Notes: generated by a model from the sequence alone, not told the origin. A stretch of DNA of 15,439 nucleotides from Verrucomicrobia bacterium UBA1211 (GCA_002309585.1 DBXN01000137.1:1-15439); one strand, 5' to 3'; positions 1 through 15,336 are shown, counted from the stretch's first letter. Numbers and translations: made by a program.

Positions 1-533
1 TCGAGGATGAAGGGCGTACCGTCCTTCCGGATCATCACGTTGGCGGGCTTGACATCGCGGTGCACCACCCCCTGTCCATGCGCGTAGTCCAAGGCCGCGG
101 CGATGGGCGTGAGGATGCGGACCACCTCGGCCTCCGGCAGCCCGGAAGCCTGCGACGGCGAGGGCGCCGCCGCCACATCCGCAAGATACTCGTCCAAAGT
201 TCGGCCGTCGATATAGTCCATCACCAGGAAGGGGTTACCGCCGTTCTCCTCGAAGGCGCGGAGCTGGACGATGTTGGGGTGGACGAGCTTCAGCGAGACC
301 AGCGCCTCCGCCTTCAATTGCGTGTAGGCCCGTTTGTTCTGGACCAGGATACTCGGCAACAGCTTCAGCGCCACGGGACGGTTGTCCAGCTGCGTGTCCT
401 CCGCCAGCCACACTGACCCCATCCCGCCCTGGCCGAGCTGCCGCACCGCGCGGTACCGCCCCGCCAGCAACGTCCCCGCCGCGCTCCCGCCCATCGTCAC
501 ATCATCGTTGATCGTGTTGCTATCCATCGCCAT
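1..533 (-). CDS. Ser/Thr protein kinase (Hanks-type), N-terminal catalytic domain; partial, the 3' end runs beyond the window start
   Basis: Reverse translation reads MAMDSNTINDDVTMGG..GRYRAVRQLGQGGMGSVWLAED..VALKLLP..HRDVKPANVMI... The Gly-rich loop, the VAxK motif and HRDxKPxN are all present. ATG at 531-533 (alternative 525-527) is preceded by a GGAGAAGG SD. It is near-identical to the 5' region of the 12882..14153 kinase gene. Confidence 0.85.
   Translation of the reverse strand, partial: MAMDSNTINDDVTMGGSAAGTLLAGRYRAVRQLGQGGMGSVWLAEDTQLDNRPVALKLLPSILVQNKRAYTQLKAEALVSLKLVHPNIVQLRAFEENGGNPFLVMDYIDGRTLDEYLADVAAAPSPSQASGLPEAEVVRILTPIAAALDYAHGQGVVHRDVKPANVMIRKDGTPFIL
1..533. repeat. Copy A of a ~0.53-kb direct repeat (kinase 5' region). 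Copy B lies at ~13590..14153 in the same orientation.
   Basis: By-eye alignment of 1-533 against 13590-14153 gives roughly 85-90% nt identity, with identical runs over 30 bp (e.g. ggttgtccagctgcgtgtcctccgccagccacac and agctgccgcaccgcgcggtaccgccccgccagca). Confidence 0.75.
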
Positions 534-764: not shown

Positions 765-1919
765 TCATTGCCCGAAGCGCTGCTGGTTGAACTGGTCATA
801 CTGTTTGATCATCGCGGGGGTGACGGAGGAAGGAATGACCTTCACCGCATTCTCCAAATCGGAAACGAGGACCATGGGATCATCCCCCGTCTCCACCCCC
901 CGTCTAAAGGCGGCGAGCCGCGCCTTGCGGACGATACCGACGATATCGCTGCCGGTATAGCCGTCCAGACGCTCCGCCCACACCGAATGGTCGATCTGCG
1001 GTTCGCAGGCGACACCCTTGAACGAACGCTCCAGCATACCCAGACGCGCCTCTCGGTCGGGAAGGCCGATATACAACTTCTCATCGAACCGGCCGGTACG
1101 GAAAACCGCCTCGTCAATCGCCCAAGGTTTGTTGGTCGCCCCGAGGATCAGCAGGATATTGTCGCTCTCCCGGAAACCGCCGACATCGGAGAGAAACTGC
1201 GTCACGATGCGGTTGTCCACCACGGAGGAGCTGGCGGTACGGCGCGGCAGCAGCCCGTCGATCTCGTCCAGAAAGAGAACCGCGACGGGACGCGAAGCCG
1301 CCGTCTTCAGCAGACGGCTCAAGTTCTGCTCGCTCTCGCCGTGCCACTTGGAACGCAACTGCGCGCCGGAGGCGTAGAAGAACGGCGCGGCGATCTCATG
1401 GGCGATGGCCTTGCCGAACATGGTCTTGCCGTTTCCCGGAGGCCCGTAGAGGATCACGCCTCCGCCCGGCTTCAGTTTCATCGCCTTCGCCTTCTCGGGT
1501 TCGCGCATCGGATAGATGATCATCTCCCGGATCGCGGCCTTGGCCTGGGTCATCCCGGCGATGTCGTCAAAGGTCACATCCGGAATCTCAGCAACTTCGA
1601 ATGACTCCCCACCGTTCTCCCCGCCGGCATCCGTCTGAGGCGGGTTGCTGGCCGAAGCGGACTGCGGTCCGCCACCATGCGCGGTGGCGTTATTCCGCTT
1701 CGGCAGTTTCGCGGTTGCGAGCTTCTCGGCGATCTCCAGCCATCCTTCCGCCGTTGTCACATAACTGGCGGCGACCGGTCCCGTCGTCTGCTTCGCCAGC
1801 GCGAAGCAGAACTCCGCCGCCTTGGCGGCATGCAACCGGGCGGCGGGGGCATCACCCGCCTGGATGGCGGCTTCGCACGCCTTCTCATGCTCCGTTTTTT
1901 TATCCGAAAGAAAACTCAT
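765..1919 (-). CDS. AAA+ ATPase of the Vps4/katanin/spastin-like type with an MIT-like N-terminal three-helix bundle
   Basis: Walker A GPPGNGKT, Walker B LFLDEID, second region of homology ATNKPWAIDEAVFRTGRFD. The C-terminal helix IPSSVTPAMIKQYDQFNQQRFGQ resembles the Vps4 C-terminus (..RPSV..DLLK..KFTEDFGQ). The N-terminal ~75 aa is predicted helical and MIT-like. Located 9 bp downstream of the peptidase gene. Confidence 0.85.
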   Translation of the reverse strand: MSFLSDKKTEHEKACEAAIQAGDAPAARLHAAKAAEFCFALAKQTTGPVAASYVTTAEGWLEIAEKLATAKLPKRNNATAHGGGPQSASASNPPQTDAGGENGGESFEVAEIPDVTFDDIAGMTQAKAAIREMIIYPMREPEKAKAMKLKPGGGVILYGPPGNGKTMFGKAIAHEIAAPFFYASGAQLRSKWHGESEQNLSRLLKTAASRPVAVLFLDEIDGLLPRRTASSSVVDNRIVTQFLSDVGGFRESDNILLILGATNKPWAIDEAVFRTGRFDEKLYIGLPDREARLGMLERSFKGVACEPQIDHSVWAERLDGYTGSDIVGIVRKARLAAFRRGVETGDDPMVLVSDLENAVKVIPSSVTPAMIKQYDQFNQQRFGQ

Positions 1920-1928
1920 GGCAGATTC

Positions 1929-3059
1929 CTATTCATGACGGTCCGACAGATCGACCCCGATCGTCTTGAGCAACGCCAAAATCTCCCCCATGCCGATCGC
2001 TTCGGCGGCGGAGGGATTGGCCTGAATAAAGTTGAGGAGCCGTTCGATCGAATGCGGATGGGTTGTCGCGGCCACTCCGCGGATAGACTCGAAAACCGCC
2101 AGCGCAAGTTCCCAGATGATCGTCCCGAGCCCCAGCGTCTCCCGGTATTCGCTGGCGCTCACGACCGAGGAGGCGAACGAATCGGCCTCCCGTTCATGGT
2201 TACGGCTGATCTCGTCATTGAGAGCGGATCCGCAACAGTGCCCCAACGCGAGATGGCCGAATTCGTGGGCCAACACACCGATGACTGTCCCGCAGGCGAG
2301 TTCGACAGTCTTCGTCTTCCACTCCTCAACGGAGAGTACGCCGTTGAGATGACAACTGTTCGCGAAGGTGGCGGCGAGTTCCGATGTCAGGCGTGTACCG
2401 TTCCGCTGAAAGTGCTCCACCATCGCGGCGATCACCCGCTGGAAGGGGACAATCCCGACCCGACCCCCCCACGCCGGATCGTCAACGGCCATTTTCCAGC
2501 CGGTATACGCCGCGGCCATCAGCATGGCGTAACGGACAGCGCCGGAAAAGAGGCAGATCGTGGGGAAGCCCTCAAGCGGATCCATCCGCGCGTAGGCGTT
2601 GACCTGGGCGTGATCCAAAAAACCGCCCAACTCCTTCGAGCGTTCCAGCGAGGTCTCGATGAACTTCAGCTGGAGCCGGGGAACCAATGCCGCATACTGG
2701 CTATTGCTGACGACCGATGGCGAGGAACAGACCATCTCCATCAGTCCTTTGACGAGCTGGGCGTTGAAGGTCCAGACATCCCCGCAAACATCGGGGAAAG
2801 GCGACGGCGCAGAAACCGCCGGCAGGGCAGACACGCCCTCCCCCCGGAACGCGGGAACATCGCCATTTCCGGCACCGTAGTTGGGAAGCGCCTGGCCGAC
2901 GCCACCCGACACCCCGATCCCGGCGCTCCGGCTCTCCGGTCCCTGACCCATGCGCCGCCCAAGATCCTGCTGGCGTTGCGCAAGCCGCTGCTCCAAATCC
3001 CGTTGCCGGTCAGCCAACCGTTTGTTGATGCCGTCCAATGCTGACATAACGTTGCTCAC
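1929..3059 (-). CDS. HExxH zinc-metallopeptidase-like protein (ImmA/IrrE M78-like or M48-like catalytic motif) with an N-terminal coiled-coil/low-complexity region
   Basis: Motif LAHEFGHLALGH, then 14 aa, then NHEREADSFA (an HExxH followed by an ExxA(D/N)xFA third-ligand motif). The track start at 3059 is a GTG that overlaps the upstream stop as GTGA; an in-frame ATG lies at 3045-3047. No signal peptide. Confidence 0.7.
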   Translation of the reverse strand: MSNVMSALDGINKRLADRQRDLEQRLAQRQQDLGRRMGQGPESRSAGIGVSGGVGQALPNYGAGNGDVPAFRGEGVSALPAVSAPSPFPDVCGDVWTFNAQLVKGLMEMVCSSPSVVSNSQYAALVPRLQLKFIETSLERSKELGGFLDHAQVNAYARMDPLEGFPTICLFSGAVRYAMLMAAAYTGWKMAVDDPAWGGRVGIVPFQRVIAAMVEHFQRNGTRLTSELAATFANSCHLNGVLSVEEWKTKTVELACGTVIGVLAHEFGHLALGHCCGSALNDEISRNHEREADSFASSVVSASEYRETLGLGTIIWELALAVFESIRGVAATTHPHSIERLLNFIQANPSAAEAIGMGEILALLKTIGVDLSDRHE

Positions 3060-3694
3060 TTTCCGCCAAGAAGATCTTTCACCCGCTGCTGTCCGGCGGC
3101 GATCCGGTCATCAATGGCCTGGCCGGCCGAGGCGGGCGCCGCCGCGCCGCCGATCTCCGCCGCGACCTGCTGTTCCAGCTCCGACGCCATATCATCGAGC
3201 GACGGGATGTGGTCCTGAAGCGCGCCGTTCGCGCCCGCCATCTCATTCTCGTACATCCGGTTCCAGAAACGGTCGGCGTTCACCTGCTCGCCCAGCATCT
3301 CCTGGGCGGTCCCGAAGACATCCTCGACCCGTTCCGGATCGATCCGGATGATCGCATTGATCTGGCCCAGCGCCTCGGCGAACTGGTTGTCGGACTGCGC
3401 GACCTCCATCTTCGTCAGATACTGCTCGAAGACCCAGCGTTTCTGCTCCAGCTTCATCGCCAGCACCTGCGCCGCGCGAGCCGCGGTCAGCGCACGGTTG
3501 GCCGCCGCCTTCTCGCCGCTCTTCAGCGCCTCGCGCGCCTTCTCCCAACTCTCCTTCGCCTCTTTCTCCAACCGCTTCTGACGGTCGATCACATCCTGCT
3601 TGGCGTTCTCGGCGTCCCGGAACGCATGACGGCGCTCACGCCGCTCCAGACGGCGGCGGGCGGCGGGAAACATGAAATATTTTAAGAATGACAT
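3056..3694 (-). CDS. ESCRT-III/Snf7-like protein (PspA/Vipp1/ESCRT-III superfamily)
   Basis: 212 aa with a basic N-terminus and an acidic C-terminus. The segment IDRQKRLEKEAKESWEKAREALKSGEKAAANRALTAARAAQ follows the CHMP alpha1-alpha2 pattern (LDRExxKLE..IKKAxKxGN..A). The C-terminal amphipathic helix IDDRIAAGQQRVKDLLGGK looks MIM1-like. A strong SD (AAGGAG) lies 6 nt upstream of ATG 3694. Confidence 0.7.
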   Translation of the reverse strand: MSFLKYFMFPAARRRLERRERRHAFRDAENAKQDVIDRQKRLEKEAKESWEKAREALKSGEKAAANRALTAARAAQVLAMKLEQKRWVFEQYLTKMEVAQSDNQFAEALGQINAIIRIDPERVEDVFGTAQEMLGEQVNADRFWNRMYENEMAGANGALQDHIPSLDDMASELEQQVAAEIGGAAAPASAGQAIDDRIAAGQQRVKDLLGGK

Positions 3695-3732
3695 AAGGGT
3701 TTCTCCTTCCTTCGAGGCAGCGGACCACCGTT

Positions 3733-4653
3733 TCAGAAATCGGCCAACGGATCGGCGGGGACAGAAGGTTCCCCGGGCCCTTTCTCCGCCTCCGACGGCT
3801 CCGTCAAAGGCACATCCGGAAGCTCGTCCCCAAACGCGGCCAACGCATCGCTGAAGGATCCGTCATCTTCCCGTTCGTGGCGAACGCCGGCTTTGTCGAG
3901 ATCGCCGATCGCCCCGTCGATGTCATCGGCGGTATCGGCGGCATCCTCAACCTCATCCGTCAGTTTATCGATACCCGCCTCGCTGATACCCTTGAGGTTC
4001 ATCGCCACCAGCTCGTTCATGCGGCCCTTCACCTTGGTCAGTACCGTCTCGTTCTTCAGGTAGGCGGCCATCTGACGTTCCAGCGACTGGTATTCGGCGA
4101 GCGCGCTCTTCAACTCCATCTCCAGAATCTTCTTCCGGGCGGGCGGCGCCGACTGATAGAGCTTCTTCTTGGCGACAATCAACCGGTAAAGCTCATCATA
4201 GCGGCGCGCCACCGGCTCGCGTCGAGCCCGATTCTCCTCGATCTGCGCCTCAATCGTCCGCATCGCCTCCTCGGGATCGCGAATCCCGGCGAGCCGTTTC
4301 GCGAGACTGCCCGCCCCTTGCCCGAGCTTCACCGCGAACTCCCCGATCTGTTTGAGGATCGACGCTTTCTTCGCGGCCGGCAGTTTCGCCGCCGCATTCG
4401 GATCCACTGTCTGGCCCGCTTCGTTTCCATCAATCATTTTCAATTCCTCCGTCTTCTCATGAACGCGACTCTCCGGGCTCAACATCCCGCCGGATTTCCA
4501 ACCGTGTGCCGGACACCGCCGGTTACCATTATGCCAGTGAAAGGCGCAGAAGACACTTCCGCACCCTTCACTCTCACACCGACCGGCGACCGCGTACCGA
4601 TTGGGCAGGACGCGGCCGCAGACCGAACAGACTTGTGGCTCAGAACCGGCCAT
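3733..4653 (-). CDS. Zinc-ribbon / Snf7 (ESCRT-III) fusion protein
   Basis: N-terminal zinc ribbon CSVCG..C.SEGCG..C..H...C.H. The core ARKKILEMELKSALAEYQSLERQMAAYLKNETVLTKVKG...VAMNLKGISEAGIDKLTDEVEDAADTADDIDGAIGDLD aligns with the CHMP4/Snf7 alpha2-alpha4 pattern (KNKRAALQALKRKKRYEKQL...KAMK..DIDKVDELMQDI.DQQE). The C-terminal tail ELPDVPLTEP...PSVP is MIM2-like. SD GAGGTG; the stop of the upstream gene is 1 nt away. Confidence 0.75.
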   Translation of the reverse strand: MAGSEPQVCSVCGRVLPNRYAVAGRCESEGCGSVFCAFHWHNGNRRCPAHGWKSGGMLSPESRVHEKTEELKMIDGNEAGQTVDPNAAAKLPAAKKASILKQIGEFAVKLGQGAGSLAKRLAGIRDPEEAMRTIEAQIEENRARREPVARRYDELYRLIVAKKKLYQSAPPARKKILEMELKSALAEYQSLERQMAAYLKNETVLTKVKGRMNELVAMNLKGISEAGIDKLTDEVEDAADTADDIDGAIGDLDKAGVRHEREDDGSFSDALAAFGDELPDVPLTEPSEAEKGPGEPSVPADPLADF

Positions 4654-4654
4654 C

Positions 4655-5764
4655 TCACCTCACACGCGTGGACGCTTTGATGAACATCACAACCAGCGCC
4701 AGCGCGGCCAGAATGGCCAGCGGCACCACCACCGCCAAAACCGGTTTCGCGCGGAGCGCAGGGAAAAGGGTGCAGATCCGCTCCCACCACCCGTACTCCG
4801 GCGTGTAGGGTTCGGAGATGCAGATCGTGTCGCTCCAGAGCTGTTCGCGCGTGGAGGCCTTTTCGATGCAGGCCTGGATCTCGGCCGTCAGCGTATACTT
4901 CTTTTCGGTCGGAAGCGTCGATACGGGCGTCACCGACAAATCCCGGAGCGATCCGATCAGCAGGGCATCCGCCTGGTCGGGCTTGTCACGGAGCGCGAGC
5001 CGAGCCTCGCCCGGCGTGGCGATGTCGAGATTGACCGTCGTCAGGTCTGTACGGGCAACGGCGTCCCGCACGATATCGGCGGCATAATGGTCCCGATCGC
5101 CCGCGAAGGGCAGGAAGGCGACCCGTTTCACACCCGCCAGTTTCGGCGAACCTTTAATCGAGGCGATGATGGCCTCACGGAGTTTCCCCTGCATGATGTT
5201 CCGCAGCGAGACGGGGATGTCGGTCAACCCTTTCTCCGAGGCGGAGGCATCGGGAATATAGTACCGCTTGGCGAAGATACCGCCCCAGAGATGGCGCTTT
5301 TCCGCGATGGAGGTCGCATGCAGCTCGATCTCAAAGAAGACACACCGCTCGTTGCGCGAGGTATTCCGGATGAATGCGGAGAGGAGAACCTGCGCCGACT
5401 TCAGTTTTCCGAATCGGTCCACCGTGGCGGGATCCAGAATGTCCTCTTTGCGGGCATCCCAGGTGATCTCCTTGAGAATCTCGTTCCACAGCGGATCCTC
5501 CTTACCCTCGACGCAGGTCTTGCCAGCGCGGGTCAACGCGATCTTCAACTGCCCCGCGATCCACCCGTCCGTATCGCCGGCGACCGGAAGGATCGCCACG
5601 GCGGCGGCCGCCGGGATCCCCGCCGTTTTCAAGGCCGCCTCGGCATCCTGAACCGCGCCCTGCACCGCCTGCCTGAAATGCTCATCGACAGGAACCGTCT
5701 GCGCCGCAGCCATCCACGCGACCGCCGCAACCGCCATCCATATCCACCGTTTTTTCATCGTCAT
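4655..5764 (-). CDS. Exported protein with two tandem CsgG/LpoB-like (TolB-N-like) modules and a C-terminal transmembrane anchor
   Basis: Signal peptide MTMKKRWIWMAVAAVAWMAAAQ (start at 5764 or 5758 chosen over the track's 5812; SD AAGGAGG directly upstream). Modules AILPVAGDTDGWIAGQLKIALTRAGKTCV...ILKEITWDARKEDILDPATVDRFGKLKSAQVLLSA and VAFLPFAGDRDHYAADIVRDAVARTDLTTVNLD...ALLIGSL match the CsgG-family pattern. C-terminal hydrophobic helix PVLAVVVPLAILAALALVVMFI. Paralog of 5788..6972. Confidence 0.65.
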   Translation of the reverse strand: MTMKKRWIWMAVAAVAWMAAAQTVPVDEHFRQAVQGAVQDAEAALKTAGIPAAAAVAILPVAGDTDGWIAGQLKIALTRAGKTCVEGKEDPLWNEILKEITWDARKEDILDPATVDRFGKLKSAQVLLSAFIRNTSRNERCVFFEIELHATSIAEKRHLWGGIFAKRYYIPDASASEKGLTDIPVSLRNIMQGKLREAIIASIKGSPKLAGVKRVAFLPFAGDRDHYAADIVRDAVARTDLTTVNLDIATPGEARLALRDKPDQADALLIGSLRDLSVTPVSTLPTEKKYTLTAEIQACIEKASTREQLWSDTICISEPYTPEYGWWERICTLFPALRAKPVLAVVVPLAILAALALVVMFIKASTRVR

Positions 5765-5787
5765 CTCTCCCTCCTTTTCCAGAAAAC

Positions 5788-6972
5788 TCATTTGACGTAA
5801 CCGAGATCCCATTCGGGATGTTTGACCATCAGCGTGTTCAGAAAACCGTCCGAGAATTGTTCCGCATCAAAAACGATCCGGAACGTGAACGTTCCCGTCT
5901 TCGCATCCTGGCGGATCAGCCGCGCCGAGCGCACGCCCTTTTCCGCATTCACCGTCTGGCAGAATTCGGCCTGCAACTTCAACTCATCCGCCGACACCAC
6001 CTTCTCACGAAGCTTCAGCTCAACCGTCGAAACCTTCAACCCGACCTGTTCCGGCGTGAAAGAGGCTTTCACCCACTCGCCCGCCTCGGCGGTCAGCGCG
6101 TTCGCCAGATTCTTCTCCGCGGCGGCCTCGCCCAACCCGCGCGCGCCACTCTTCGTCACCGTCTTCTCAGCGAGCGTACGGGGATTGCCTCCCAAGATCC
6201 GGGTCTTCAGCGAGAGGGAACCGGTCAGTTTGTACCACTCGCCCGTGCGGTCAAACACCTCGCGGGACGCGGAGACTGTAACCTCGACATCGGGAGGGAA
6301 CGGGCTGTCCACGACATAACCCGCCTTGGCCAATGCGTTGCGGATGGCTGACGCGGCATCATCGATCACAACCGCCGCATTTCCCTTCTCGCAACGGACC
6401 GCAACCCGGATCCGGGAAGGATCCGCCATACCCTGCGCCGTCTCACCGATCGTCTTGATCGGCGCGAATTTACCGTCGATCACATTGGCGCCCCACACAT
6501 ACTGCTTGGTCTTGATGGCATAGGCCAACAGATTCAGTTCCGCCACCGTCTCCTTGGGACCGTTCTTGACGATCTCAACGGCGCTTTCGAGGAGGATCTG
6601 CGTGGACTTCAGCTCACCCAACGTGTCGATCGTCGCCGGATCGACGCTCCTCAGGATCGCCTGGCGCTCGTCCCATTTGATCTCGGAGAGAATCCGCTTG
6701 AACCGCGCGTCCTTCTCCTCGTCATTGGCGGTCACGCACGTCTTTCCGGCGCGGGTCAGCGCCTGGATCAGAAGACCCTCGAAATAACCTTCCTGATCAC
6801 CCTTGACCGGAAGGACCGTGATCGCCTTCCCGTCCAACACGGAAACGGACCGGATCTCCGACTCCACCGTCCCGGCGAGTTGCCGTAACGCCGCGCGCTC
6901 CTTTTGGTCAAACGCCAGCAGCGTCAACGGGGCGAGAAAAACCAGCATCAACCCTTTTGCCATTGCCTTCAT
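5788..6972 (-). CDS. Exported protein with CsgG/LpoB-like modules (paralog of 4655..5764)
   Basis: Signal peptide MKAMAKGLMLVFLAPLTLLA. Modules ITVLPVKGDQEGYFEGLLIQALTRAGKTCV...FKRILSEIKWDERQAILRSVDPATIDTLGELKSTQILLESAV are near-parallel to the downstream paralog. The ATG abuts the stop of the upstream lipoprotein gene (TAAATG). Confidence 0.65.
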   Translation of the reverse strand: MKAMAKGLMLVFLAPLTLLAFDQKERAALRQLAGTVESEIRSVSVLDGKAITVLPVKGDQEGYFEGLLIQALTRAGKTCVTANDEEKDARFKRILSEIKWDERQAILRSVDPATIDTLGELKSTQILLESAVEIVKNGPKETVAELNLLAYAIKTKQYVWGANVIDGKFAPIKTIGETAQGMADPSRIRVAVRCEKGNAAVVIDDAASAIRNALAKAGYVVDSPFPPDVEVTVSASREVFDRTGEWYKLTGSLSLKTRILGGNPRTLAEKTVTKSGARGLGEAAAEKNLANALTAEAGEWVKASFTPEQVGLKVSTVELKLREKVVSADELKLQAEFCQTVNAEKGVRSARLIRQDAKTGTFTFRIVFDAEQFSDGFLNTLMVKHPEWDLGYVK

Positions 6973-7554
6973 TTATTTCCTTCCTTTCACGTTTTGATCC
7001 AACCAATCCGCAATCGCGCAGGCCAAAGGCGCAACCAAGACCTTCTCTGCATCGGCGCGGCCCAATTTGCGGGGCCCCTGCACGACAAAACGTTTGTCTA
7101 CCGTCTCTGTCCCGTCCGCAGCGGCAAACGCGATCCGTGCGTCAACCTGCCCATCGCAAACGAACCACTCGTCCAGCCTGGCCTTCACGGAGGAGGACGC
7201 GGAGAGAGTCAACCCGGCATAGGGCACGTTTCCGTCAATGAAACGATACCCGCGTTTCGTCAGCTCCTCACGGAGCCGGACGGCGATATCCGCCGCAAAT
7301 GTCGCTCCCGTCGCCCCGCTCGCCGCCACGCTGACCGTCACGGTATCGGTCACGGGTTTCGGCTGTTCCTGAACCGGCGCGGACTCGGCGACCGGCGCGG
7401 GAACGGGTTCAGCAACCGGCGCGGGCGCTTGAACCGCCGGAGACTCCTGGACCACCACAACCTCCACCGGTATCGGCCGCTGCGTGACGCATCCCGAAAA
7501 CACAACCGCCGAAAACGCGGCTACCGCCGTCAATAGACCATTCACCTTCTTCAT
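6973..7554 (-). CDS. Lipoprotein with a Pro/Ala-rich linker and a C-terminal alpha/beta domain
   Basis: Start chosen at MKKVNGLLTAVAAFSAVVFSGC (lipobox VFSGC; ATG 7552-7554; AAGGA ~10 nt upstream) rather than the track's 7761. Linker PAVQAPAPVAEPVPAPVAESAPVQEQPKP. The C-terminal segment FAADIAVRLREELTKRGYRFIDG resembles the CsgG/LpoB-like module of its neighbours. Confidence 0.65.
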   Translation of the reverse strand: MKKVNGLLTAVAAFSAVVFSGCVTQRPIPVEVVVVQESPAVQAPAPVAEPVPAPVAESAPVQEQPKPVTDTVTVSVAASGATGATFAADIAVRLREELTKRGYRFIDGNVPYAGLTLSASSSVKARLDEWFVCDGQVDARIAFAAADGTETVDKRFVVQGPRKLGRADAEKVLVAPLACAIADWLDQNVKGRK

Positions 7555-7570
7555 TTCATAATCCTTTCGT

Positions 7571-8989
7571 TTACTCTTTACGCTGATGATAACGTCCGGC
7601 TCTGTACGGAACGCCAGCCACCTCAACCGACATTCCCGGTACGATCTTTCGCCCAGAAACCAAGAAACACTTTCCATTCCAAACCCAGTCACATCCCCCG
7701 CACGGAACTTTTCGGCTGACAATGGCGACAACCTGTTCGTCCAACCCGTCATCACGGACAAGCGTGAAACCGGAAATCAGGCCGTCGTCACAGATGAAAA
7801 GTTCCAACGTGAATCCCACAACCCCCTCCGGATAATTCGGAGCCTTCGCGCCAAAAGTCAGGTGTGAGACACCCCGGGGAATAACCATCCCGCCCGGGCC
7901 GACCTCATTCCCCTCCACCTGGACACCCCAGGTGGACGGCTCCCCTTCCATTCCGTCAAAGATCCGCAGTCTTCTCCCATCAGAGACCGTGAGCCTGAAG
8001 TGGCGGCGGGAAAGACACATCGATCGGCTCTTATCCATCTGATGACATTCACGGTCAAACACCCGGACCACGTAATCACAGGTGTCGTGACGGCCGCAGA
8101 CCATTGTCTCGTCGGAGCCCAACGCCCACAGTTGGATCATTTTCCCCGCACCCGTCAACGTCAGTCGGGGGGCGCCCCCCTCAAGGTCGACCGCCAACTG
8201 ATGCGTCACCGCCCGCGACTGCTCAACCCGCGGATCCCGCAGATTGATCCCGCTCACGGCCGGCGAATGGTACTGGAGCAAACTCGCGCCCGCCCCGTTC
8301 ACTTCCACCTTCGTATCGATAGTGATGCTGTTTGGGCTGGCGTGATCCAGCACCCGAACGGGGAAAACCGCGCTGAACACATCCGGATCATCCATCCCGT
8401 CCCGTACGCAGAAGAAGCGCACCGTCAACTCAACGGTTCCCGCAACCTTCGGACAGACATTCAGAGGGAAAGTCAACCGCTCCGTGGTGGGCCGGTAACC
8501 CAGCGGATGGCGCTGCACCTCATTCGGCCCGTTGAAAAGCGCCACCGTCACATCGGCATAGAGATCCTCCACCGCCTGGAACACAATCTTGACCGGCGAT
8601 GACCACCCCTTCCACATGGTTTCTGGGAACGTCACCGTCGCACCGAAGGGCATTCCATCCGGGATTTCCACCGGCGGCGCCACCGACGCGCCGAAGGGCG
8701 GATACCCCGTCATCCCGCCGAACGGTGCGATCGGATCAAGCGGCCGCAACGGCGGCAGGTTCGCGGGAGCCGCCGGGTTGAACCCGGAGGGCGCTCCCGC
8801 AGGAGGAGCCGCGGGTTGCGGACACGCGCGTTGCGCGACATCCGGCACGGGCGCGGGGGCCGGCGCGGGCACAGCGACGGGCTCCGGCTCGCAGAGCCGC
8901 CCCGCCGCCGGGCCGCAATTCTCGCAAAAGGTGCCGACCTCGCCCAGCAACCCGCAAAGGGGACATTTGACTTCCGCCATGCGAACCAT
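7571..8989 (-). CDS. Zinc-ribbon / Pro-rich linker / beta-rich middle domain / C-terminal FHA domain protein
   Basis: N-terminus CPLCG...CENCG. FHA-like region GRHDTCDYVV..SRRHFRLTVSDGRRLRIFDGMEGEPSTWGVQVEGNEV (GR...SRxH...D..StnGt.vng pattern). The SD AGGAAGGA abuts ATG 8989, so the in-frame ATG at 8980 (MAEVKCPLCG) may be the true start. Confidence 0.75.
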   Translation of the reverse strand: MVRMAEVKCPLCGLLGEVGTFCENCGPAAGRLCEPEPVAVPAPAPAPVPDVAQRACPQPAAPPAGAPSGFNPAAPANLPPLRPLDPIAPFGGMTGYPPFGASVAPPVEIPDGMPFGATVTFPETMWKGWSSPVKIVFQAVEDLYADVTVALFNGPNEVQRHPLGYRPTTERLTFPLNVCPKVAGTVELTVRFFCVRDGMDDPDVFSAVFPVRVLDHASPNSITIDTKVEVNGAGASLLQYHSPAVSGINLRDPRVEQSRAVTHQLAVDLEGGAPRLTLTGAGKMIQLWALGSDETMVCGRHDTCDYVVRVFDRECHQMDKSRSMCLSRRHFRLTVSDGRRLRIFDGMEGEPSTWGVQVEGNEVGPGGMVIPRGVSHLTFGAKAPNYPEGVVGFTLELFICDDGLISGFTLVRDDGLDEQVVAIVSRKVPCGGCDWVWNGKCFLVSGRKIVPGMSVEVAGVPYRAGRYHQRKE

Positions 8990-8996
8990 ATCCTTC

Positions 8997-11198
8997 CTAC
9001 TTCACGAGGTTGATTGAAGGCGGCGGAGGAGGCGGGGGCGTCTGCGTCTGATTGATCACGTTCACCGGACGCTCCACCGCGCGGGCGGCGATATCATGAA
9101 GCATCCGCATCGTCTCCTCATCATGGGCGACCCGCTGGTCAGTCATGCGCTTCATCTCTTCGACAAGCTTGTCATGCTGGGCGACCTCGGCCGCGGCTTG
9201 CGCGGAAGCCGCCTGGGCTTCCGCCTGAGCCTTGGCCGCGAGAGCCTGCGCGGCAGTCGCCGACCGTCCCGCCTCCCGGGCCAGAAGCTGCTCCGCCGTC
9301 ATCCCCTTCTCCGCCTCAAGCCGCGCCTTCTCCAACTCCTGCTCCTGCTGGAACCGCGCCAGTTCCATCAGTTGCCGCCGCTGTTCCGGGTCCTTCTCCA
9401 GCGCAGCCATCTCCACCGGGCTGAGGCCCTTAATCACCGTTGCAAGGCTCTCCCGTTCCTTGGCGTCCAACTCCTGAAGCCGCGCGAGATTCTTGAGCTG
9501 GTTCTCCATCCCCTCCTGTGCGATCTCCTGGGCGGTCCGGGTTTCATAGTTTTTGACGTCGATCCCGGTTTTCGCGACCGTCGCGTCGGCTTGGGCATCC
9601 TTGATCCGATCGGAACGGTGGATGTCTCCGATGCCCGACTGGTGCTCAGCGTCTTTCCGTTCTTCATCCCGCAACACGTCACTGACCGCGCTCTTCCCCT
9701 GCGCGGTGGCGAGCGACTCGGCGATCTCATGTTCCCGGATACGGCTGTCCTTCTCGAACCGATGGTCAAGCTCGCGGCGTTCCCGCTCAAACTGGTGCTC
9801 AAGCTCCGCAAATTCACGATCATGTTCCCGCGACAGCTTCGCCAGCTCCTCCTCCGCTCCCTTGGCATCGATTTGCCCATCGGCGGCCATCCGCGCGATC
9901 TTCAGCTCGACCTCGCGGGAGAGATCGGAAAGTCCCTTCTCCTGCGCCAGTTGCTTGATGTACTCCTCGGAATCCTGGGCGCGCCGGGCCGCCTCGCGCT
10001 TCCGCCGCTCCTCCAGATCCGCCTGATCCCGTTCGGAATCCGCCGTAATGACCAGTTCACGGTAACGCTCCGCCTCGGACTCCGCGCGCTGCGTCAGCTT
10101 ATGCTCGCGACTCTCGCGCTCCTCGTCAAGGATGTGCTCATGCAGTTTCTTATCATATTCCAGCTGACGGCGCTTTGCGTCCAGCTCGCCGTACCGCTTA
10201 CGCATCTCCTCGTATTCGGCGCTGACGAAATCGACATATCCCACCCGCACCAGCTCAAGGCCGGAGCGTTTCAGCAGATCCTTGAGCGCGCGCCCGATCG
10301 CATCCTCAAACCGGGGTCTGCGTTCCGGATCTTTCACCAGATCTTCGATCTTCGACTGCAGGCAGAGATCCTTCACCGCAGCCGAAGCCTCGGACAGCAG
10401 CCACGTCCCGATATCTTCCGCGAAAAGTCGGTTCGCCCGGTCCTGCCCCGTGCCGTCCGTCCCGGCATCCGGCTGCCCCGCGCCGCCCGACGCCTGAACA
10501 CCCCGTTCCGATTTCATCACATTGGCGAGGAACGCGTTCGCCTCACCCGGATTGAAACGGATCGTCACCTCCGCGATGACCTTGACCGGAAGCTCCTCGG
10601 CAGTCCTCATTCCCGGGAAATCCACCCGAAAAACGCAGTCGCCTGAATCGACCATCACCACACTGTGCGGCGGCGGATTGCCGAACCAGTTGATGGTCCG
10701 GAGCGTCCCCTCCGGGTTGTGCCGCCCAGGCCCCAAAATCGCCGCCTTCTTCCCGGCATCCAGAAGGATCGCCACCGTCCCCTCCTGGATTTTGAGTCCG
10801 CCCTTGGCGATGCCCGTCACGTCGGAAAGCTCAATCCGCTGGGCGAAAACGCCCGGATCGCGGTCCCAGACCCCGCCGGCGAGATTCGGCCGCTCTTCGG
10901 GATGAAGCGGATAGTTGCAGTGCGGGCAGAAGCGGGAATCGTTCCCGACCCATGCGTGGCAGGAGGGGCACTTCACCCAGCCGTTCGGCGCCCCGTGTCC
11001 GCATTTGGAGCAGAACCGCGCCTTCTTGGAGACCGAATGCCCGCAAATCCCCCAGCCCTTCTGGGCGAGCACGGATTCCTTGTTCCATCGCGACGCGCCA
11101 AGCAGCAGCGTCTTCGCCTCATCCAGCTTCGCACCCGTGAGCGCCTGCCCCGTCTTCAAATCAACAATCGCCTCGCACGTATCATGAAAGAGTCCCAT
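8997..11198 (-). CDS. Double zinc-ribbon / SPFH (band-7) domain / long flotillin-like coiled-coil protein with a poly-Pro C-terminus
   Basis: N-terminus CSKCG..CPSCH..CPHC. SPFH-like segments IQEGTVAILLDAGKKAAILGPGRHNP...VDFPGMRTAEELPVKVIAEVTIRFNPGE and RALKDLLKRSGLELVRVGYVDFVSAEYEEMRK. Then ~400 aa of charged coiled coil with flotillin-like EA repeats (AKAQAEAQAASAQAAAEVAQ), ending TPPPPPPPS. SD AGGAGAA upstream. Confidence 0.7.
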   Translation of the reverse strand: MGLFHDTCEAIVDLKTGQALTGAKLDEAKTLLLGASRWNKESVLAQKGWGICGHSVSKKARFCSKCGHGAPNGWVKCPSCHAWVGNDSRFCPHCNYPLHPEERPNLAGGVWDRDPGVFAQRIELSDVTGIAKGGLKIQEGTVAILLDAGKKAAILGPGRHNPEGTLRTINWFGNPPPHSVVMVDSGDCVFRVDFPGMRTAEELPVKVIAEVTIRFNPGEANAFLANVMKSERGVQASGGAGQPDAGTDGTGQDRANRLFAEDIGTWLLSEASAAVKDLCLQSKIEDLVKDPERRPRFEDAIGRALKDLLKRSGLELVRVGYVDFVSAEYEEMRKRYGELDAKRRQLEYDKKLHEHILDEERESREHKLTQRAESEAERYRELVITADSERDQADLEERRKREAARRAQDSEEYIKQLAQEKGLSDLSREVELKIARMAADGQIDAKGAEEELAKLSREHDREFAELEHQFERERRELDHRFEKDSRIREHEIAESLATAQGKSAVSDVLRDEERKDAEHQSGIGDIHRSDRIKDAQADATVAKTGIDVKNYETRTAQEIAQEGMENQLKNLARLQELDAKERESLATVIKGLSPVEMAALEKDPEQRRQLMELARFQQEQELEKARLEAEKGMTAEQLLAREAGRSATAAQALAAKAQAEAQAASAQAAAEVAQHDKLVEEMKRMTDQRVAHDEETMRMLHDIAARAVERPVNVINQTQTPPPPPPPSINLVK

Positions 11199-11212
11199 TT
11201 CCGTTCTCCTGT

Positions 11213-11569
11213 TTACTGATGTTGGTCATTTCCCGTTAAAGTGTGTTCCGTGCACTTCCGCACGCCCCGTCGCGTCCAGCAGTCGAAGCAGATCGGTTTC
11301 CCGCATCCCTCCTCCGTGCATCCCTGCCGAAGCGACCCGTTCGACCGGTAGAACGTCCCGCATACGCTACAGACGCCCCCTTCGGCCGCGGTCCGTTTAC
11401 TCCGTTCCAAATACCCGTCAAGATCGCTCTTCGCCACACGATACAGCTTACCCAGCCGCGCCGCCGGCAGCTCCCCGCTCCGGACCAGCCTGTAAATGAG
11501 CTGATAGGTGACACCCAGCATCTCCGCCACCTCCTCAAGGCTCATGTATCCCGTCTCTTTCCCATCCAT
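11213..11569 (-). CDS. Excisionase/MerR-type HTH DNA-binding protein with a C-terminal zinc ribbon (putative regulator of the cluster)
   Basis: MSLEEVAEMLGVTYQLIYRLVRSGELPAARLGKLYRVAKSDLDGYL matches the excisionase-family HTH. C-terminal zinc ribbon CSVCG...GCTEEGCG..C..C...C. Perfect SD AGGAGG lies 5 nt upstream of ATG 11569. It is the first gene after a promoter-like region. Confidence 0.8.
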   Translation of the reverse strand: MDGKETGYMSLEEVAEMLGVTYQLIYRLVRSGELPAARLGKLYRVAKSDLDGYLERSKRTAAEGGVCSVCGTFYRSNGSLRQGCTEEGCGKPICFDCWTRRGVRKCTEHTLTGNDQHQ

Positions 11570-11587: not shown

Positions 11588-11613
11588 CTTTGATGGTTAT
11601 GACTTTATCAAAG
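11588..11613. promoter_or_regulatory. Candidate operator: 7-bp perfect inverted repeat ctttgat-N12-atcaaag overlapping the -10 region of the HTH gene
   Basis: ctttgat at 11588-11594 and atcaaag at 11607-11613 (8/8 except one position if extended). It sits between the predicted -10 and the transcript start of the HTH gene. Confidence 0.45.
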
Positions 11614-11668
11614 TTACTTTCTGATGTCAATTAGGTATTTTATTTTATTTTTGTTTATTTTTGTTTTA
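11602..11668 (-). promoter_or_regulatory. Sigma70-like promoter for the HTH-led operon: A/T-rich UP-like element, -35 TTGACA, 17-bp spacer, -10 TAAAGT
   Basis: On the minus strand, TTGACA is the reverse complement of 11625-11630. A 17-nt spacer (rc 11608-11624) leads to TAAAGT (rc 11602-11607). The upstream 11636-11668 is an A/T-tract block (ttgtttattt repeats), unusual in a ~65% GC sequence. The leader is ~25 nt to the SD/ATG. Confidence 0.5.
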
Positions 11669-12708: not shown

Positions 12709-12740
12709 CACCCACGCGCCCTTTTCCCACTGCCGTTGTT

Positions 12741-12881
12741 CCAACCCGCGCGCACCCCCCCGCGCCCAACCCGCGCGCAACCCCCTCGCACCCAACCCGC
12801 GCGCAACCCCCTCGCGCCCAACCTGCGCGCAACCCCCTCGCGGGGCCCAACCTGCGCGCAACCCCCTCGCGGGGTTGCGCG
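12741..12881. repeat. Tandem array of about five 26-bp REP-like units (cccaaccYgcgcgcaaccccctcgcR). The last copy forms an 11-bp perfect-stem palindrome (12855-12881).
   Basis: Copies at 12741-12764 (degenerate), 12765-12790, 12791-12816, 12817-12845 and 12846-12881. Last copy cgcgcaacccc-ctcgc-ggggttgcgcg. The array begins 1 nt after the kinase stop codon (12882-12884). There are no unique spacers, so it is not CRISPR. Confidence 0.7.
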
Positions 12882-15328: not shown

Positions 15329-15336
15329 TTTCAAAC

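Follow-up and report, generated by a model that had tools for sequence, protein, structure and literature searches.

Two Snf7-branch ESCRT-III relatives and a Cdc48-like AAA ATPase encoded in a conserved operon of PVC-group bacteria

Introduction

The locus described here raises the question whether an ATP-driven ESCRT-III machine may exist in bacteria, because two very divergent relatives of Snf7, the membrane-cutting protein of eukaryotes and archaea, were found to adjoin the gene of a single-ring AAA ATPase in a conserved operon. The locus belongs to a Kiritimatiellae-group bacterium (Verrucomicrobia bacterium UBA1211, GCA_002309585.1 DBXN01000137.1:1-15439), and the whole stretch of 15,439 nucleotides that was analysed is called the window. 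PspA systems have been reviewed as having no Vps4-type AAA partner (PMC7619361), and two cases of a bacterial AAA link have been described (Ravi et al. 2024, PMC11237479). One is an MIT+Vps4-like AAA protein with a TPR-6TM gene replacing snf7, Verrucomicrobia and Planctomycetes included, and the other is a signal-anchored Snf7 with a double-AAA protein, one cassette of which is inactive (PMC11237479). The original prediction, that known bacterial systems lack a Vps4 partner, agrees with the reviews (PMC7619361), although sporadic bacterial Snf7/PspA-AAA links were already reported (PMC11237479).

Results

Organization and conservation of the operon

The two predicted open reading frames, here named P1 and P2, were confirmed at their exact coordinates and lie on the minus strand (Table 1). 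More than 100 homologue clusters were found for P1 and more than 100 for P2, and both are genuine conserved genes. The P2 homologues (n=125) covered P2 over its full length and were mostly 290-340 aa long; the public gene call of P2 (P0121, 234 aa) was found to be too short. This region forms the core of an operon of ten genes on the minus strand (about 765-11569), which contained close-packed or overlapping genes with a single promoter-like site upstream, named from its consensus match only.

Table 1. Features of the window with their coordinates, strand and description
Feature	Coordinates	Strand	Description
Ser/Thr kinase gene, 5' part	1..533	minus	from translation; downstream of ATPase, runs off the window
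AAA ATPase	765..1919	minus	384 aa, single-cassette, classical; two genes downstream of P1
ATPase N-terminal domain, aa 1-72	1704..1919	minus	three predicted helical segments; candidate substrate-recognition domain
HExxH metallopeptidase	1929..3059	minus	376 aa, Lit/U49- and M48-like; start overlaps P1 stop by 4 nt
P1	3056..3694	minus	212 aa; ESCRT-III protein of the Snf7 branch, by sequence and model
P1 C-terminal motif [IL]DxRIxxGQxRVKx[LIM]LxGK-COOH	3059..3115	minus	candidate ATPase-docking element
P1 N-terminal hydrophobic/basic segment MSFLKYFMFPAARRRLERRERRHAF	3620..3694	minus	candidate membrane-binding alpha0
P2	3733..4653	minus	306 aa; two-zinc module, disordered linker, divergent Snf7/CHMP4-like helical domain
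LPDVP of P2, aa 278-282	3808..3822	minus	'MIM2-like' element, unconserved
SFSDALAAFGD ([DE]xLAxF) of P2	3826..3858	minus	aligns with Snf7 helix alpha5
P2 ESCRT-III-like helical domain, aa 93-272	3838..4377	minus	from AF2 helices and remote Snf7 homology
P2 zinc module CxxC-x13-C-x4-C-x4-CxxH-x7-CxxH	4504..4629	minus	eight ligands
Three envelope proteins	4655..7761	minus	hydrophobic segments, lipobox VFSGC
Zinc-ribbon + FHA-like protein	7571..8989	minus	472 aa; Pfam FHA E 0.0029, below cut-off
Double zinc ribbon + SPFH/Band-7 + long coiled coil	8997..11198	minus	733 aa; from Pfam
HTH_17 (excisionase/MerR-like) protein	11213..11569	minus	118 aa; first operon gene; HTH_17 2.8e-16
Promoter-like site TTGACA-17-TAAAGT	11602..11630	minus	upstream of HTH gene; 10/12 match, TG extension

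Conservation was followed in 27 loci from species-level genomes of Kiritimatiellia, Lentisphaerae, Victivallales and Verrucomicrobiota (PVC group). Within 10 kb of P1, the ATPase gene was found in 21 of these genomes, P2 in 19, the kinase gene in 18 and the SPFH gene in 16, with the order mostly kept and the ATPase gene usually directly downstream of P1. Alongside the P2-P1-ATPase core, genes for SPFH/zinc-ribbon, FHA and kinase proteins were usually found. In three fully flanked loci (L007, L013 and L015), P1 was present and no ATPase gene lay within 10 kb of it. Two unrelated metagenome contigs (L028 and L033) were found to contain a triad of P2-like, P1-like and AAA genes with the same ATPase N-domain, without the zinc module and among other neighbours. 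The predicted pair of divergent ESCRT-III-like paralogues, of which one carries a fused zinc module and which share an operon with an AAA ATPase, was borne out, and this arrangement is conserved both in PVC bacteria and outside them.

The 733-aa SPFH protein was found to contain Zn_Ribbon_1 (2.5e-8), DZR (3.5e-7) and Band_7 (4e-7) matches in Pfam, and no transmembrane segment was found in it. The 472-aa FHA-like protein carried a CxxC..CxxC N-terminus, read from the sequence. The envelope set contained a lipoprotein (likely start 7554) and two paralogues, one a secreted protein of 394 aa and the other a protein of 385 aa that has a signal peptide and a C-terminal membrane anchor; the genes g385 and g394 matched each other, and about 10 loci had them upstream of P2. 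The peptidase matched Peptidase_U49 (3.9e-5) and M48 (2.7e-4) in Pfam and Lit in NCBIfam (1.1e-6) and PADLOC (1.7e-8), and is a variable accessory gene, present in 4 of the 27 related loci. The kinase gene followed the ATPase gene in most related loci.

Family, fold and N-terminus of P1

The Pfam model Snf7 (PF03357) matched P1 with an E-value of 4.8e-5 and 23.5 bits, under the cut-off of 27.3, and all 63 P1 family members tested were matched by it (E <= 0.1; best 7.1e-8). Many P1 orthologues carried a precomputed PF03357 assignment and the name 'Snf7 family protein'. When the P1 family profile was compared with the PDB, yeast Snf7 and Heimdall ESCRT-IIIB were found to be the top matches and the only ESCRT-III chains reached, and no chain of CHMP1, CHMP2, CHMP3, Vps24 or Did2 was matched at E <= 10. 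An A-type assignment of P1 (CHMP1/2/3, Vps2/24/46) was not supported by this comparison; the CHMP1/2-type hairpin that had been proposed gave way to Snf7 and Asgard ESCRT-IIIB as nearest solved relatives. The PspA_IM30 model (PF04012) gave no listed match to P1 or P2 at E <= 1 and was absent from the 25 commonest matches listed for either family (E <= 0.1).

The AF2 model of P1 (pTM 0.70) contained helices at residues 10-58, 62-97, 102-116, 126-134, 140-147, 166-181 and 188-209, which match in order and length those of ESCRT-III, where alpha3, alpha4, alpha5 and a C-terminal helix come after the alpha1-alpha2 hairpin. Structure prediction had been set as the check that could refute the ESCRT-III assignment, and the hairpin was found to be present with the helices in the right order. 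The top 15 Foldseek matches of the model in the PDB were ESCRT-III, PspA, Vipp1 or Ist1, all of the ESCRT-III superfamily, with probabilities of 0.66-0.99 and E-values of at least 0.05. By its profile matches and predicted fold, P1 is an ESCRT-III protein of the Snf7 branch. At the N-terminus M1, R22 and A24 were invariant and F7, R13, R18, R19, R21 and F25 nearly so, and by analogy with the Snf7 N-terminus this segment is a candidate for membrane binding.

C-terminal tail of P1

The C-terminal tail of P1 contained a conserved R-h-x-x-h-h pattern in 119 of 120 homologues, with G201, R204 and L209 invariant. The motif persisted down to 34% identity, and the distant P1-like proteins encoded by L028 and L033 have it in the form GxxRLxxL[LI]; the tail had a pLDDT of <50 in the AF2 model. 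It had been likened to MIM1, the helical Vps4-docking motif with the consensus (D/E)xxLxxRLxxL(K/R). A conserved amphipathic motif was indeed found, but the likeness is partial: the MIM1 pattern, strict or loose, was present in none of the 120 tails, and the conserved GQxRVKxLLxGK has just the R-h-x-x-L core in common with it.

Helical domain and tail motifs of P2

The AF2 model of P2 (mean pLDDT 81) contained two short amphipathic helices (93-109 and 112-122), followed by a hairpin of 42 and 51 residues (127-168 and 171-221), a 32-residue helix (225-256) and a short helix (266-272). The Pfam Snf7 model reached P2 at E 0.17 and matched none of 69 homologues at E <= 0.1. Among 1.84 billion (1.84e9) proteins, the profile of the helical domain reached the Snf7 protein P0331 with E 5.5e-4, itself a bona fide Snf7 (Pfam Snf7 3.6e-33, yeast Snf7 1e-24). 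The hhalign comparison of the two gave 93% probability and E 3e-7 over 164 collinear columns. The real score of 50.8 was 17 sd higher than that of shuffles (12.2+/-2.2) and twice the reversed-sequence score, and a natural coiled coil of 390 aa, used as control, was not recognised by the P2 profile. Just 98 proteins of the 1.84e9 were matched, so the profile is not promiscuous. The top two Foldseek matches of the P2 model in the PDB were Asgard ESCRT-IIIB. From these comparisons P2 is a remote relative of the Snf7/CHMP4 type with statistical support, and the predicted CHMP4/Snf7 type was supported by the controlled P0331 match, while a long hairpin with later helices was predicted for the fold. 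The P1 and P2 families cannot recognise each other by sequence and each is conserved, which points to an old duplication.

P2 contained the motif [DE]xLAxF, in which L271 and F274 were invariant in 69 sequences; the motif was present in 112 of 120 homologues, and SFSDALAAFGD was aligned by hhalign to DIEDELNMLDEE of P0331. A second copy, DPLADF (3736-3753), was found at the C-terminus and was carried by about one third of the P2 homologues. The Pro-rich tail had been read as MIM2, a proline-rich Vps4-docking motif with the pattern [LV]Px[VL]P. LPDVP fits this pattern, but it is located in a variable part of the alignment and the pattern was present in 1 of 112 tails, the window's own (0.35 expected in shuffled tails), and is therefore unconserved; the conserved motif of P2 is instead [DE]xLAxF.

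Zinc module of P2 and its counterpart

The N-terminal module of P2 was found to contain invariant C9, C12, C26, C31, C36, C47 and H50 in an alignment of 16 sequences. In the alignment of 69 P2 sequences C9, C12 and C36 were invariant, and C26, C31, H39, C47 and H50 were present in at least 90%. The module was modelled with a pLDDT of about 96 (AF2), zf-CRD of Pfam gave sub-threshold matches in 58 of the 69 members, and no solved relative was found when one was looked for. The N-terminal zinc ribbon originally described is thus a conserved zinc-binding module, but the eight conserved Cys/His ligands indicate two zinc ions and not a simple ribbon. The C-terminus of the HTH protein was found to be homologous to this module (36% over 50 aa, E 3e-7), and the HTH gene was located directly upstream of the SPFH gene in 12 of the 27 loci.

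The AAA ATPase

The ATPase contained a helical N-domain of about 72 aa, followed by a low-complexity linker of about 35 aa and the AAA module, with the Pfam matches AAA (9e-34) and AAA_lid_3 (7e-9). Vps4_C matched residues 348-380 with E 0.15 (0.042 in the L028 orthologue), and this segment aligned with VAT D2 as well. The NCBIfam scores were 203 bits for CDC48, 190 for CdvC and 182 for PAN, all far under the cut-offs (650 for CdvC). By phmmer, VAT D2 scored 190 bits, followed by yeast Vps4 (161), VAT D1 (159), CdvC (149.5) and VPS4B (148.5), the Vps4 and CdvC values being approximate. An intact Walker A and the pore loop SKWHGESE were kept, and the ATPase was found to contain FRTGRFDEKLY where Vps4 has a two-residue gap. 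By sequence, the ATPase is Cdc48/VAT-D2-like and lies outside the Vps4 clade. Placement of its AAA module with Vps4/CdvC (meiotic-clade AAA) was rejected on the higher VAT D2 score and the absence of the shortened RR-RF(E/D)KR motif.

The N-domain was conserved in 22 orthologues and in L028. No MIT domain was detected by profile comparison of the N-domain with all PDB chains, by Pfam in the 22 N-domains at E <= 10, or in the precomputed Pfam assignments of 120 ATPase orthologues. An hhalign comparison with an approximate alignment of four MIT sequences gave 7.5% probability over 62 collinear columns, and the size and the three helix-like segments of the domain are compatible with MIT. Of the predicted MIT-AAA ATPase, what remains is an AAA ATPase whose N-terminus is a small helical domain, but it is Cdc48/VAT-D2-like and MIT was undetected. 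The Vps4-type recruitment logic of paired MIM1 and MIM2 with MIT was not established: conserved motifs that are candidates for docking were found in both proteins, but the MIM2 match is a one-off and the MIM1 consensus is absent.

Discussion

Comparison with known systems

The operon resembles the archaeal CdvB/CdvC and the Asgard ESCRT-IIIA/IIIB and Vps4 systems in that divergent Snf7-family paralogues adjoin a single-cassette AAA ATPase gene, a small helical domain on a flexible linker forms the N-terminus of the ATPase, and both paralogues carry conserved C-terminal peptide motifs; among solved structures, P1 and P2 have their nearest relatives in Snf7 and Heimdall ESCRT-IIIB. It differs from them in its bacterial host, in the lack of CdvA and ESCRT-I/II and in the two-zinc module of P2. 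The ATPase, in which the Cdc48-type motif RTGRFD is retained, is nearer Cdc48/VAT D2 (190 bits) than Vps4/CdvC (149-161 bits), and in contrast to Vps4 systems MIT was undetected and neither MIM consensus was conserved.

In archaeal 'Meth_adaptin' ESCRT loci, an SPFH + coiled-coil + zinc-ribbon protein accompanies ESCRT-III-family genes (Makarova et al. 2024, PMC10936438). Those loci belong to another domain of life, and here no adaptin-like or ProX genes were seen whereas kinase, FHA and HTH genes are extra; the SPFH proteins are likened by domain make-up alone. The B. subtilis ydjFGH(I/L) operon contains an ESCRT-III-superfamily protein together with Band-7/SPFH and zinc-ribbon proteins (PMC11237479). 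The present operon shares this combination and a presumed membrane role at the cytoplasmic face with it and with PspA/Vipp1, but contains two paralogues siding with Snf7 and not PspA_IM30, plus a dedicated classical AAA ATPase. The cases of Ravi et al. are alike in having bacterial Snf7-clade or Vps4-like genes, for which ATP-dependent membrane remodelling was proposed (PMC11237479). They differ from the present operon, in which both Snf7-type paralogues are soluble, the ATPase has one cassette and no detected MIT, and an SPFH, FHA, kinase and HTH-zinc gene set is present. The ESCRT-III plus AAA variant described here is genuine and previously undescribed.

Proposed function and alternative explanations

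The reading favoured here, with a probability of about 60%, is that the operon encodes a bacterial ESCRT-III-type membrane-remodelling module in which a P1/P2 polymer is worked by the ATPase. As in composite ESCRT-III polymers, P1 and P2, anciently diverged proteins of the Snf7 branch, would assemble together at the cytoplasmic side of the inner membrane. P1 would be attached through its hydrophobic/basic N-terminus, and P2 through its amphipathic pre-hairpin helices and the two-zinc module. As the HTH protein ends in the same module, this module probably docks P2 to some other product of the operon. The polymer would be recognised by the small helical N-domain of the ATPase, for which P1 offers its near-invariant C-terminal motif and P2 its [DE]xLAxF motifs as the best candidate docking sites. 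Subunits would then be threaded through the KWxGE pore loop, leading to turnover or constriction as with Vps4/CdvC. Placement and control of the assembly would fall to the SPFH/zinc-ribbon scaffold, the FHA protein and the Ser/Thr kinase(s), and the three envelope proteins may tie it to the state of the envelope.

An envelope-stress system of the Psp kind, considered unlikely, would use P1 and P2 to coat damaged membrane or to repair it, like PspA/Vipp1, with help from the SPFH scaffold and no Vps4-type action, the ATPase being a Cdc48-like unfoldase for other work, such as feeding the HExxH peptidase or extracting damaged membrane proteins. The kinship of the ATPase with Cdc48/VAT D2, the undetected MIT, the envelope proteins and the joint occurrence of an ESCRT-III family member with SPFH and zinc ribbon, as in ydj, all suit it, as does the peptidase gene placed between P1 and the ATPase in the window with its 4-nt overlap. 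However, the peptidase was present in just 4 of the 27 loci against 21 for the ATPase, usually next after P1; the triad of L028 and L033 recurs without SPFH or peptidase, and a near-invariant motif at the extreme C-terminus of P1 is what is expected of a docking peptide. A reading of P2 as a generic coiled-coil adaptor that bears a zinc module, which would leave P1 as the sole ESCRT-III protein, is very improbable, given the selectivity of its profile with a full-length collinear Snf7 match among the 98, the shuffled, reversed and coiled-coil controls, and the finding that P2-like genes always adjoin P1-like and AAA genes.

A conflict or anti-phage (abortive-infection) system, in which kinase/FHA sensing would lead ESCRT-III-like, SPFH and protease effectors to damage or seal the membrane, is judged improbable. 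It draws on domain-level PADLOC/NCBIfam matches of the ATPase (IetA, 5e-28), the peptidase (Lit, 1.7e-8), the kinase (PD-T4-6, 3e-65) and the HTH protein (MAD1, 6.8e-9), on weak EAD9 matches in 12 of 69 P2 homologues, and on a DUF4143 ATPase, an unassigned ORF and a duplicated kinase in the window, which suggest a variable neighbourhood. These matches, however, are to generic domains (AAA, kinase, HTH, HExxH) with none system-specific, PADLOC gave none for P1, P2, the SPFH, FHA or envelope proteins, the Lit-like gene is variable, and the order is conserved over several PVC classes, like that of a vertically inherited cellular system. Domain-level matches of several operon genes to anti-phage families and the three ATPase-less loci were counted against the membrane-remodelling machine, together with the undetected MIT, the grouping of the ATPase with Cdc48/VAT and the lack of a MIM consensus in both families' tails.

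Implications

A broader reading of the membrane-remodelling module, offered tentatively and with the odds somewhat against it, is that PVC bacteria and some other uncultured lineages have a native ATP-driven ESCRT-III machine, made of two ancient Snf7-branch paralogues and a dedicated Cdc48-derived ATPase with its own N-terminal recognition domain and tail motifs. If true, this would be a bacterial sister of the archaeal ESCRT-III/Vps4 partnership, or its convergent re-invention, and would overturn the view of bacteria as being without a Vps4-type partner.

Snf7-branch ESCRT-III protein P1

The 212-aa protein P1 belongs to the Snf7 branch of ESCRT-III. In the window it was found to match Pfam Snf7 at 23.5 bits (E 4.8e-5), slightly below the 27.3-bit cut-off, and Snf7 was matched by 63/63 aligned members of the P1 family (best 7.1e-8, Pfam); many P1 orthologues have been annotated with PF03357 and named 'Snf7 family protein'. 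PspA_IM30 gave no signal in P1. The AlphaFold model (pLDDT 76, pTM 0.70) contained helices at residues 10-58, 62-97, 102-116, 126-134, 140-147, 166-181 and 188-209, an order that corresponds to the alpha1-alpha2 hairpin, then alpha3-alpha5 and lastly a helix at the C-terminus. All of the top 15 Foldseek PDB matches of this model belonged to the ESCRT-III superfamily, each at E of at least 0.05, with Asgard ESCRT-IIIB, CdvB2, CdvB, PspA, Vipp1, Ist1 and Snf7 among the families. The sole ESCRT-III matches of the P1 family profile in the PDB were yeast Snf7 (E 0.014) and Heimdallarchaeal ESCRT-IIIB (E 0.09), and no CHMP1/2/3-type chain was present among its matches; the CHMP1/2-type label of the original prediction is therefore unsupported, and P1, if anything, leans towards the B type.

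Remote ESCRT-III likeness of P2

The 306-aa protein P2 carries a fused two-zinc module and is, judged by remote sequence comparison, probably a far more divergent relative of ESCRT-III. Pfam Snf7 reached only E 0.17 in P2 and was found in none of 69 P2 homologues, and NCBIfam contained no match for P1 or P2. The P1 and P2 family profiles showed no relation in profile-profile comparison (0.6%) and P1-like and P2-like proteins never matched each other; the term 'paralogues' is therefore valid at the superfamily level only. PDB searches with single sequences and with family profiles gave marginal results. In the P2 model (pLDDT 81), a small, confidently modelled zinc domain (aa 1-55) is joined by a disordered linker to a helical region. 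This region opens with a pair of short amphipathic helices and continues with a hairpin of 42+51 residues, a helix of 32 residues and a further short one.

The profile of the P2 helical domain alone, searched against 1.84 billion representative proteins, reached only 98 proteins at E <= 0.001. One of these, P0331 (E 5.5e-4, matched across almost its full length), is a true member of the Snf7/CHMP4 type, with Pfam Snf7 at 3.6e-33 and yeast Snf7 at 1e-24. The hhalign alignment of the two (probability 93%, E 3e-7) was collinear across 164 columns and ran from the N-terminal segment as far as alpha5. The real score, 50.8, stood well clear of its controls: 12.2 +/- 2.2 for 100 shuffles (maximum 18.5) and 24.1 for the reversed sequence. 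The predicted likeness of P2 to CHMP4/Snf7 was thus recovered, and with it the claim of two divergent ESCRT-III-like genes. As regards the expected helical hairpin, the helix order of P1 and the hairpin of P2 were present in the predicted models.

Five scattered proteins of 190-215 aa (P0324, P0327, P0328, P0330 and P0332), related to the P2 helical domain, were found to contain hydrophobic N-termini and C-terminal RLKxLL-like motifs. None was matched by Pfam Snf7, and they appear to form an ESCRT-III-like family that lacks annotation.

Two-zinc module

The N-terminus of P2 was found in the alignment to contain eight conserved ligands, CxxC-x13-C-x4-C-x4-CxxH-x7-CxxH, and therefore two zinc sites, not a four-Cys ribbon; the zinc-binding N-terminus predicted for one of the two proteins is conserved, but it is not a plain ribbon. 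Sub-threshold matches to Pfam zf-CRD were present in 58/69 P2 homologues, and a search for a PDB relative of the module found none. The module is kept by most of the 120 listed P2 homologues; the public gene call for P2 (P0121, 234 aa) begins at Met73 and leaves it out. The distant P2-like proteins of two metagenome contigs, L028 and L033, are without it, so the module is an accretion on the ESCRT-III core.

Over 50 residues, the module (4504-4629) and the C-terminal half of the HTH_17 protein (11213-11389) were 36% identical (E 3e-7), and the latter ends in the same eight-ligand arrangement. This common module suggests a shared docking partner; by analogy with PspA-PspF coupling, it hints at competition for one partner, or sharing of it, between an ESCRT-III-like protein and a transcription factor.

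AAA ATPase and its N-terminal domain

The ATPase contained a single classical AAA cassette (Pfam AAA 9e-34, and AAA_lid_3) with the Walker A motif GPPGNGKT and the pore loop SKWHGESE. The NCBIfam scores for CDC48 (203 bits), CdvC (190) and PAN (182) were similar and all far under their cut-offs, and the CdvC match covered positions 87-366 of 370, leaving the MIT part uncovered. In local phmmer comparison, with hand-entered Vps4 and CdvC sequences, VAT D2 (190 bits) was followed by yeast Vps4 (161), VAT D1 (159), CdvC (149.5) and VPS4B (148.5). The Cdc48-type FRTGRFDEKLY was found to be retained, where Vps4 has a two-residue deletion.

The N-domain of 72 residues was conserved, with three helix-like segments. 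MIT was matched neither in Pfam (22 sequences, E <= 10) nor by a profile search of all PDB chains, and was absent from the stored Pfam annotations of 120 ATPase orthologues; hhalign against a small MIT alignment (four hand-entered sequences) gave a collinear match at 7.5%. The MIT identity of this domain is unproven. In architecture and gene context the ATPase thus resembles Vps4, but it lies outside the Vps4 clade and is Cdc48-like rather than a Vps4.

C-terminal tail motifs

The MIM1 and MIM2 patterns were scored across 120 homologues each, and both were rejected as consensus matches. The segment LPDVP of P2 (aa 278-282) matches (L/V)Px(V/L)P; it falls in a variable stretch of the alignment, and the pattern was present in 1/112 homologous tails against 0.35 expected by shuffling. 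The MIM2-type pattern is not a feature of the P2 family, and the MIM2 claim fails. The conserved element of the P2 tail was found to be [DE]xLAxF (SFSDALAAFGD, with L271 and F274 invariant), which aligns with Snf7 alpha5, followed by a second copy, DPLADF, at the extreme C-terminus; about one-third of the homologues contain a second copy.

The last 19 residues of P1 contained the near-invariant motif [IL]DxRIxxGQxRVKx[LIM]LxGK (119/120 homologues). Distant P1-like proteins were found to retain GxxRLxxL[LI], and zinc-less P2-like proteins contained C-terminal RLKxL-type motifs similar to the P1 tail. The motif has the R-h-x-x-L core in common with MIM1, with an invariant Gly in place of the first Leu and no basic residue after the last Leu; even a loose MIM1 pattern was found in 0/120 homologues. 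The predicted MIM1 thus stands in its core but not in its consensus, and is unproven. From its near-invariance and its retention in distant P1-like proteins, the P1 tail is thus a good candidate for an ATPase-docking peptide; it is not a MIM1 by definition.

Operon organization and conservation

All the long conserved ORFs of the window were found on the minus strand, with ten closely packed or overlapping genes downstream of a promoter-like site. By the names of its homologues, the source organism belongs to Kiritimatiellae.

Features of the operon and its flanks in the window
Feature	Position	Strand	Remark
AAA_14 + DUF4143 ATPase	14150-15334		far end of window
Close paralogue of Ser/Thr kinase	12882-14153
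393-aa ORF	11704-12885		between promoter region and upstream kinase
Promoter-like site	11630-11602
HTH_17 protein ending in Cys/His module	11213-11569	-	head of operon
733-aa protein	8997-11198	-	double zinc ribbon, SPFH/Band-7, coiled coil
472-aa protein	7571-8989	-	zinc ribbon, FHA-like
Three envelope proteins	4655-7761	-	lipoprotein, secreted protein, signal-plus-anchor paralogue
262-aa ORF	6973-7761
Two secreted proteins	4655-6972		second and third of the envelope proteins; mutually paralogous; one with C-terminal membrane anchor
P2	3733-4653	-
P1	3056-3694	-
HExxH peptidase	1929-3059	-	Lit/U49-M48 kind
384-aa AAA ATPase	765-1919	-
Ser/Thr kinase	starts at 533	-	after ATPase
Direct repeats	24-477, 13611-14103		85-86% identity; 5' parts of both kinase paralogues

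The kinase paralogues bracket the whole cluster, 13.6 kb apart, which suggests a local duplication. The 262-aa ORF, the first of the three envelope genes, overlaps the FHA gene solely through an upstream TTG; its start is likely Met70 (nt 7554), giving a lipoprotein with the lipobox VFSGC. None of the three envelope proteins was assigned in Pfam or NCBIfam. The peptidase showed weak likeness to M48 and to Lit (U49), a protease of phage exclusion, and no assignment was found for its N-terminal 250 residues. It begins at a GTG, with a 4-nt overlap with the P1 stop. The 393-aa ORF contained a repetitive Arg/Gly/Ala-rich N-terminus (ARGLRAGWA repeats), without a Pfam match and with a counterpart in 0/27 related loci. 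Four related loci (L007, L012, L018 and L020) also have the AAA_14 + DUF4143 ATPase close to P1; this family is frequent in variable genomic regions.

P1 was found to be encoded in 27 species-level genomes of Kiritimatiellia, Lentisphaerae, Victivallales and Verrucomicrobiota, with the gene order mostly as in the window. Within 10 kb of P1 in these 27 loci, several on incomplete contigs, were the ATPase (21), P2 (19), the Ser/Thr kinase (18), the SPFH protein (16), the HTH-zinc protein (12) and, in variable position, the peptidase (4). The ATPase was not within this distance in three loci with full flanks. In the unrelated contigs L028 (3590-8479) and L033 (3527-9410), a papain-like (Peptidase_C1) protein of ~800 aa is followed by a P2-like gene, P1-like genes (one or two) and an ATPase orthologue that has the same N-domain. 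No SPFH protein or zinc module was found in these sets, so that the invariant core consists of a P2-type gene, a P1-type gene and the AAA ATPase.

Proposed function and alternatives

The ESCRT-III pair is a real observation, with both genes correctly assigned to ESCRT-III. The favoured reading, with a probability of about 0.6, is a bacterial ESCRT-III-type remodelling module in which P1 and P2 would co-assemble on the inner membrane, the ATPase N-domain would dock on the conserved tail motifs, and the ATPase would extract subunits via its pore, with localisation and control from the SPFH protein, the FHA protein, the kinase and the zinc module.

A Psp-like repair system, with the ATPase serving another purpose, is considerably less probable; a B. 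subtilis operon of PspA, Band-7 and zinc-ribbon proteins has been described (Ravi et al. 2024, PMC11237479). A conflict or defence system is more doubtful still: its supporting PADLOC matches were limited to generic domains, so this label was not adopted, and the synteny looks vertical. Slightly less credit is given to P2 being a mere coiled coil; a 390-aa natural coiled coil of the same operon, used as a further control, scored 12.3 against the real score of 50.8.

Recent reviews place the ESCRT-III/Vps4 pairing in archaea by origin (PMC7619361, PMC10936438). A 2025 review holds that a Vps4-like ATPase 'appears absent in bacteria', the bacterial ESCRT-III relatives being PspA/Vipp1 (PMC7619361), and Makarova et al. 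2024 report ESCRT components in archaea 'but not in bacteria', along with archaeal loci containing an SPFH/coiled-coil/zinc-ribbon protein (PMC10936438). Bacterial MIT+Vps4-like ATPases with a partner TPR-6TM protein in place of Snf7, and a membrane-anchored Snf7 with a double-AAA protein, were described by Ravi et al. 2024 (PMC11237479). No specific description of the PVC operon was found in the literature searched.

In this operon, which is conserved in Kiritimatiellia, Lentisphaerae and their relatives, a dedicated AAA ATPase is coupled with two proteins of the Snf7 branch; the arrangement is of real interest for the evolution of membrane remodelling. The SPFH/zinc-ribbon and FHA proteins, the kinase and the shared two-zinc module make up a compact set of candidate partners. 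If the ATPase acts on P1 and P2, ATP-driven ESCRT-III remodelling would be directly testable in bacteria, and the system would bear on when the polymer-plus-unfoldase logic arose and on how far the PVC superphylum has eukaryote-like membrane biology, a matter long debated.
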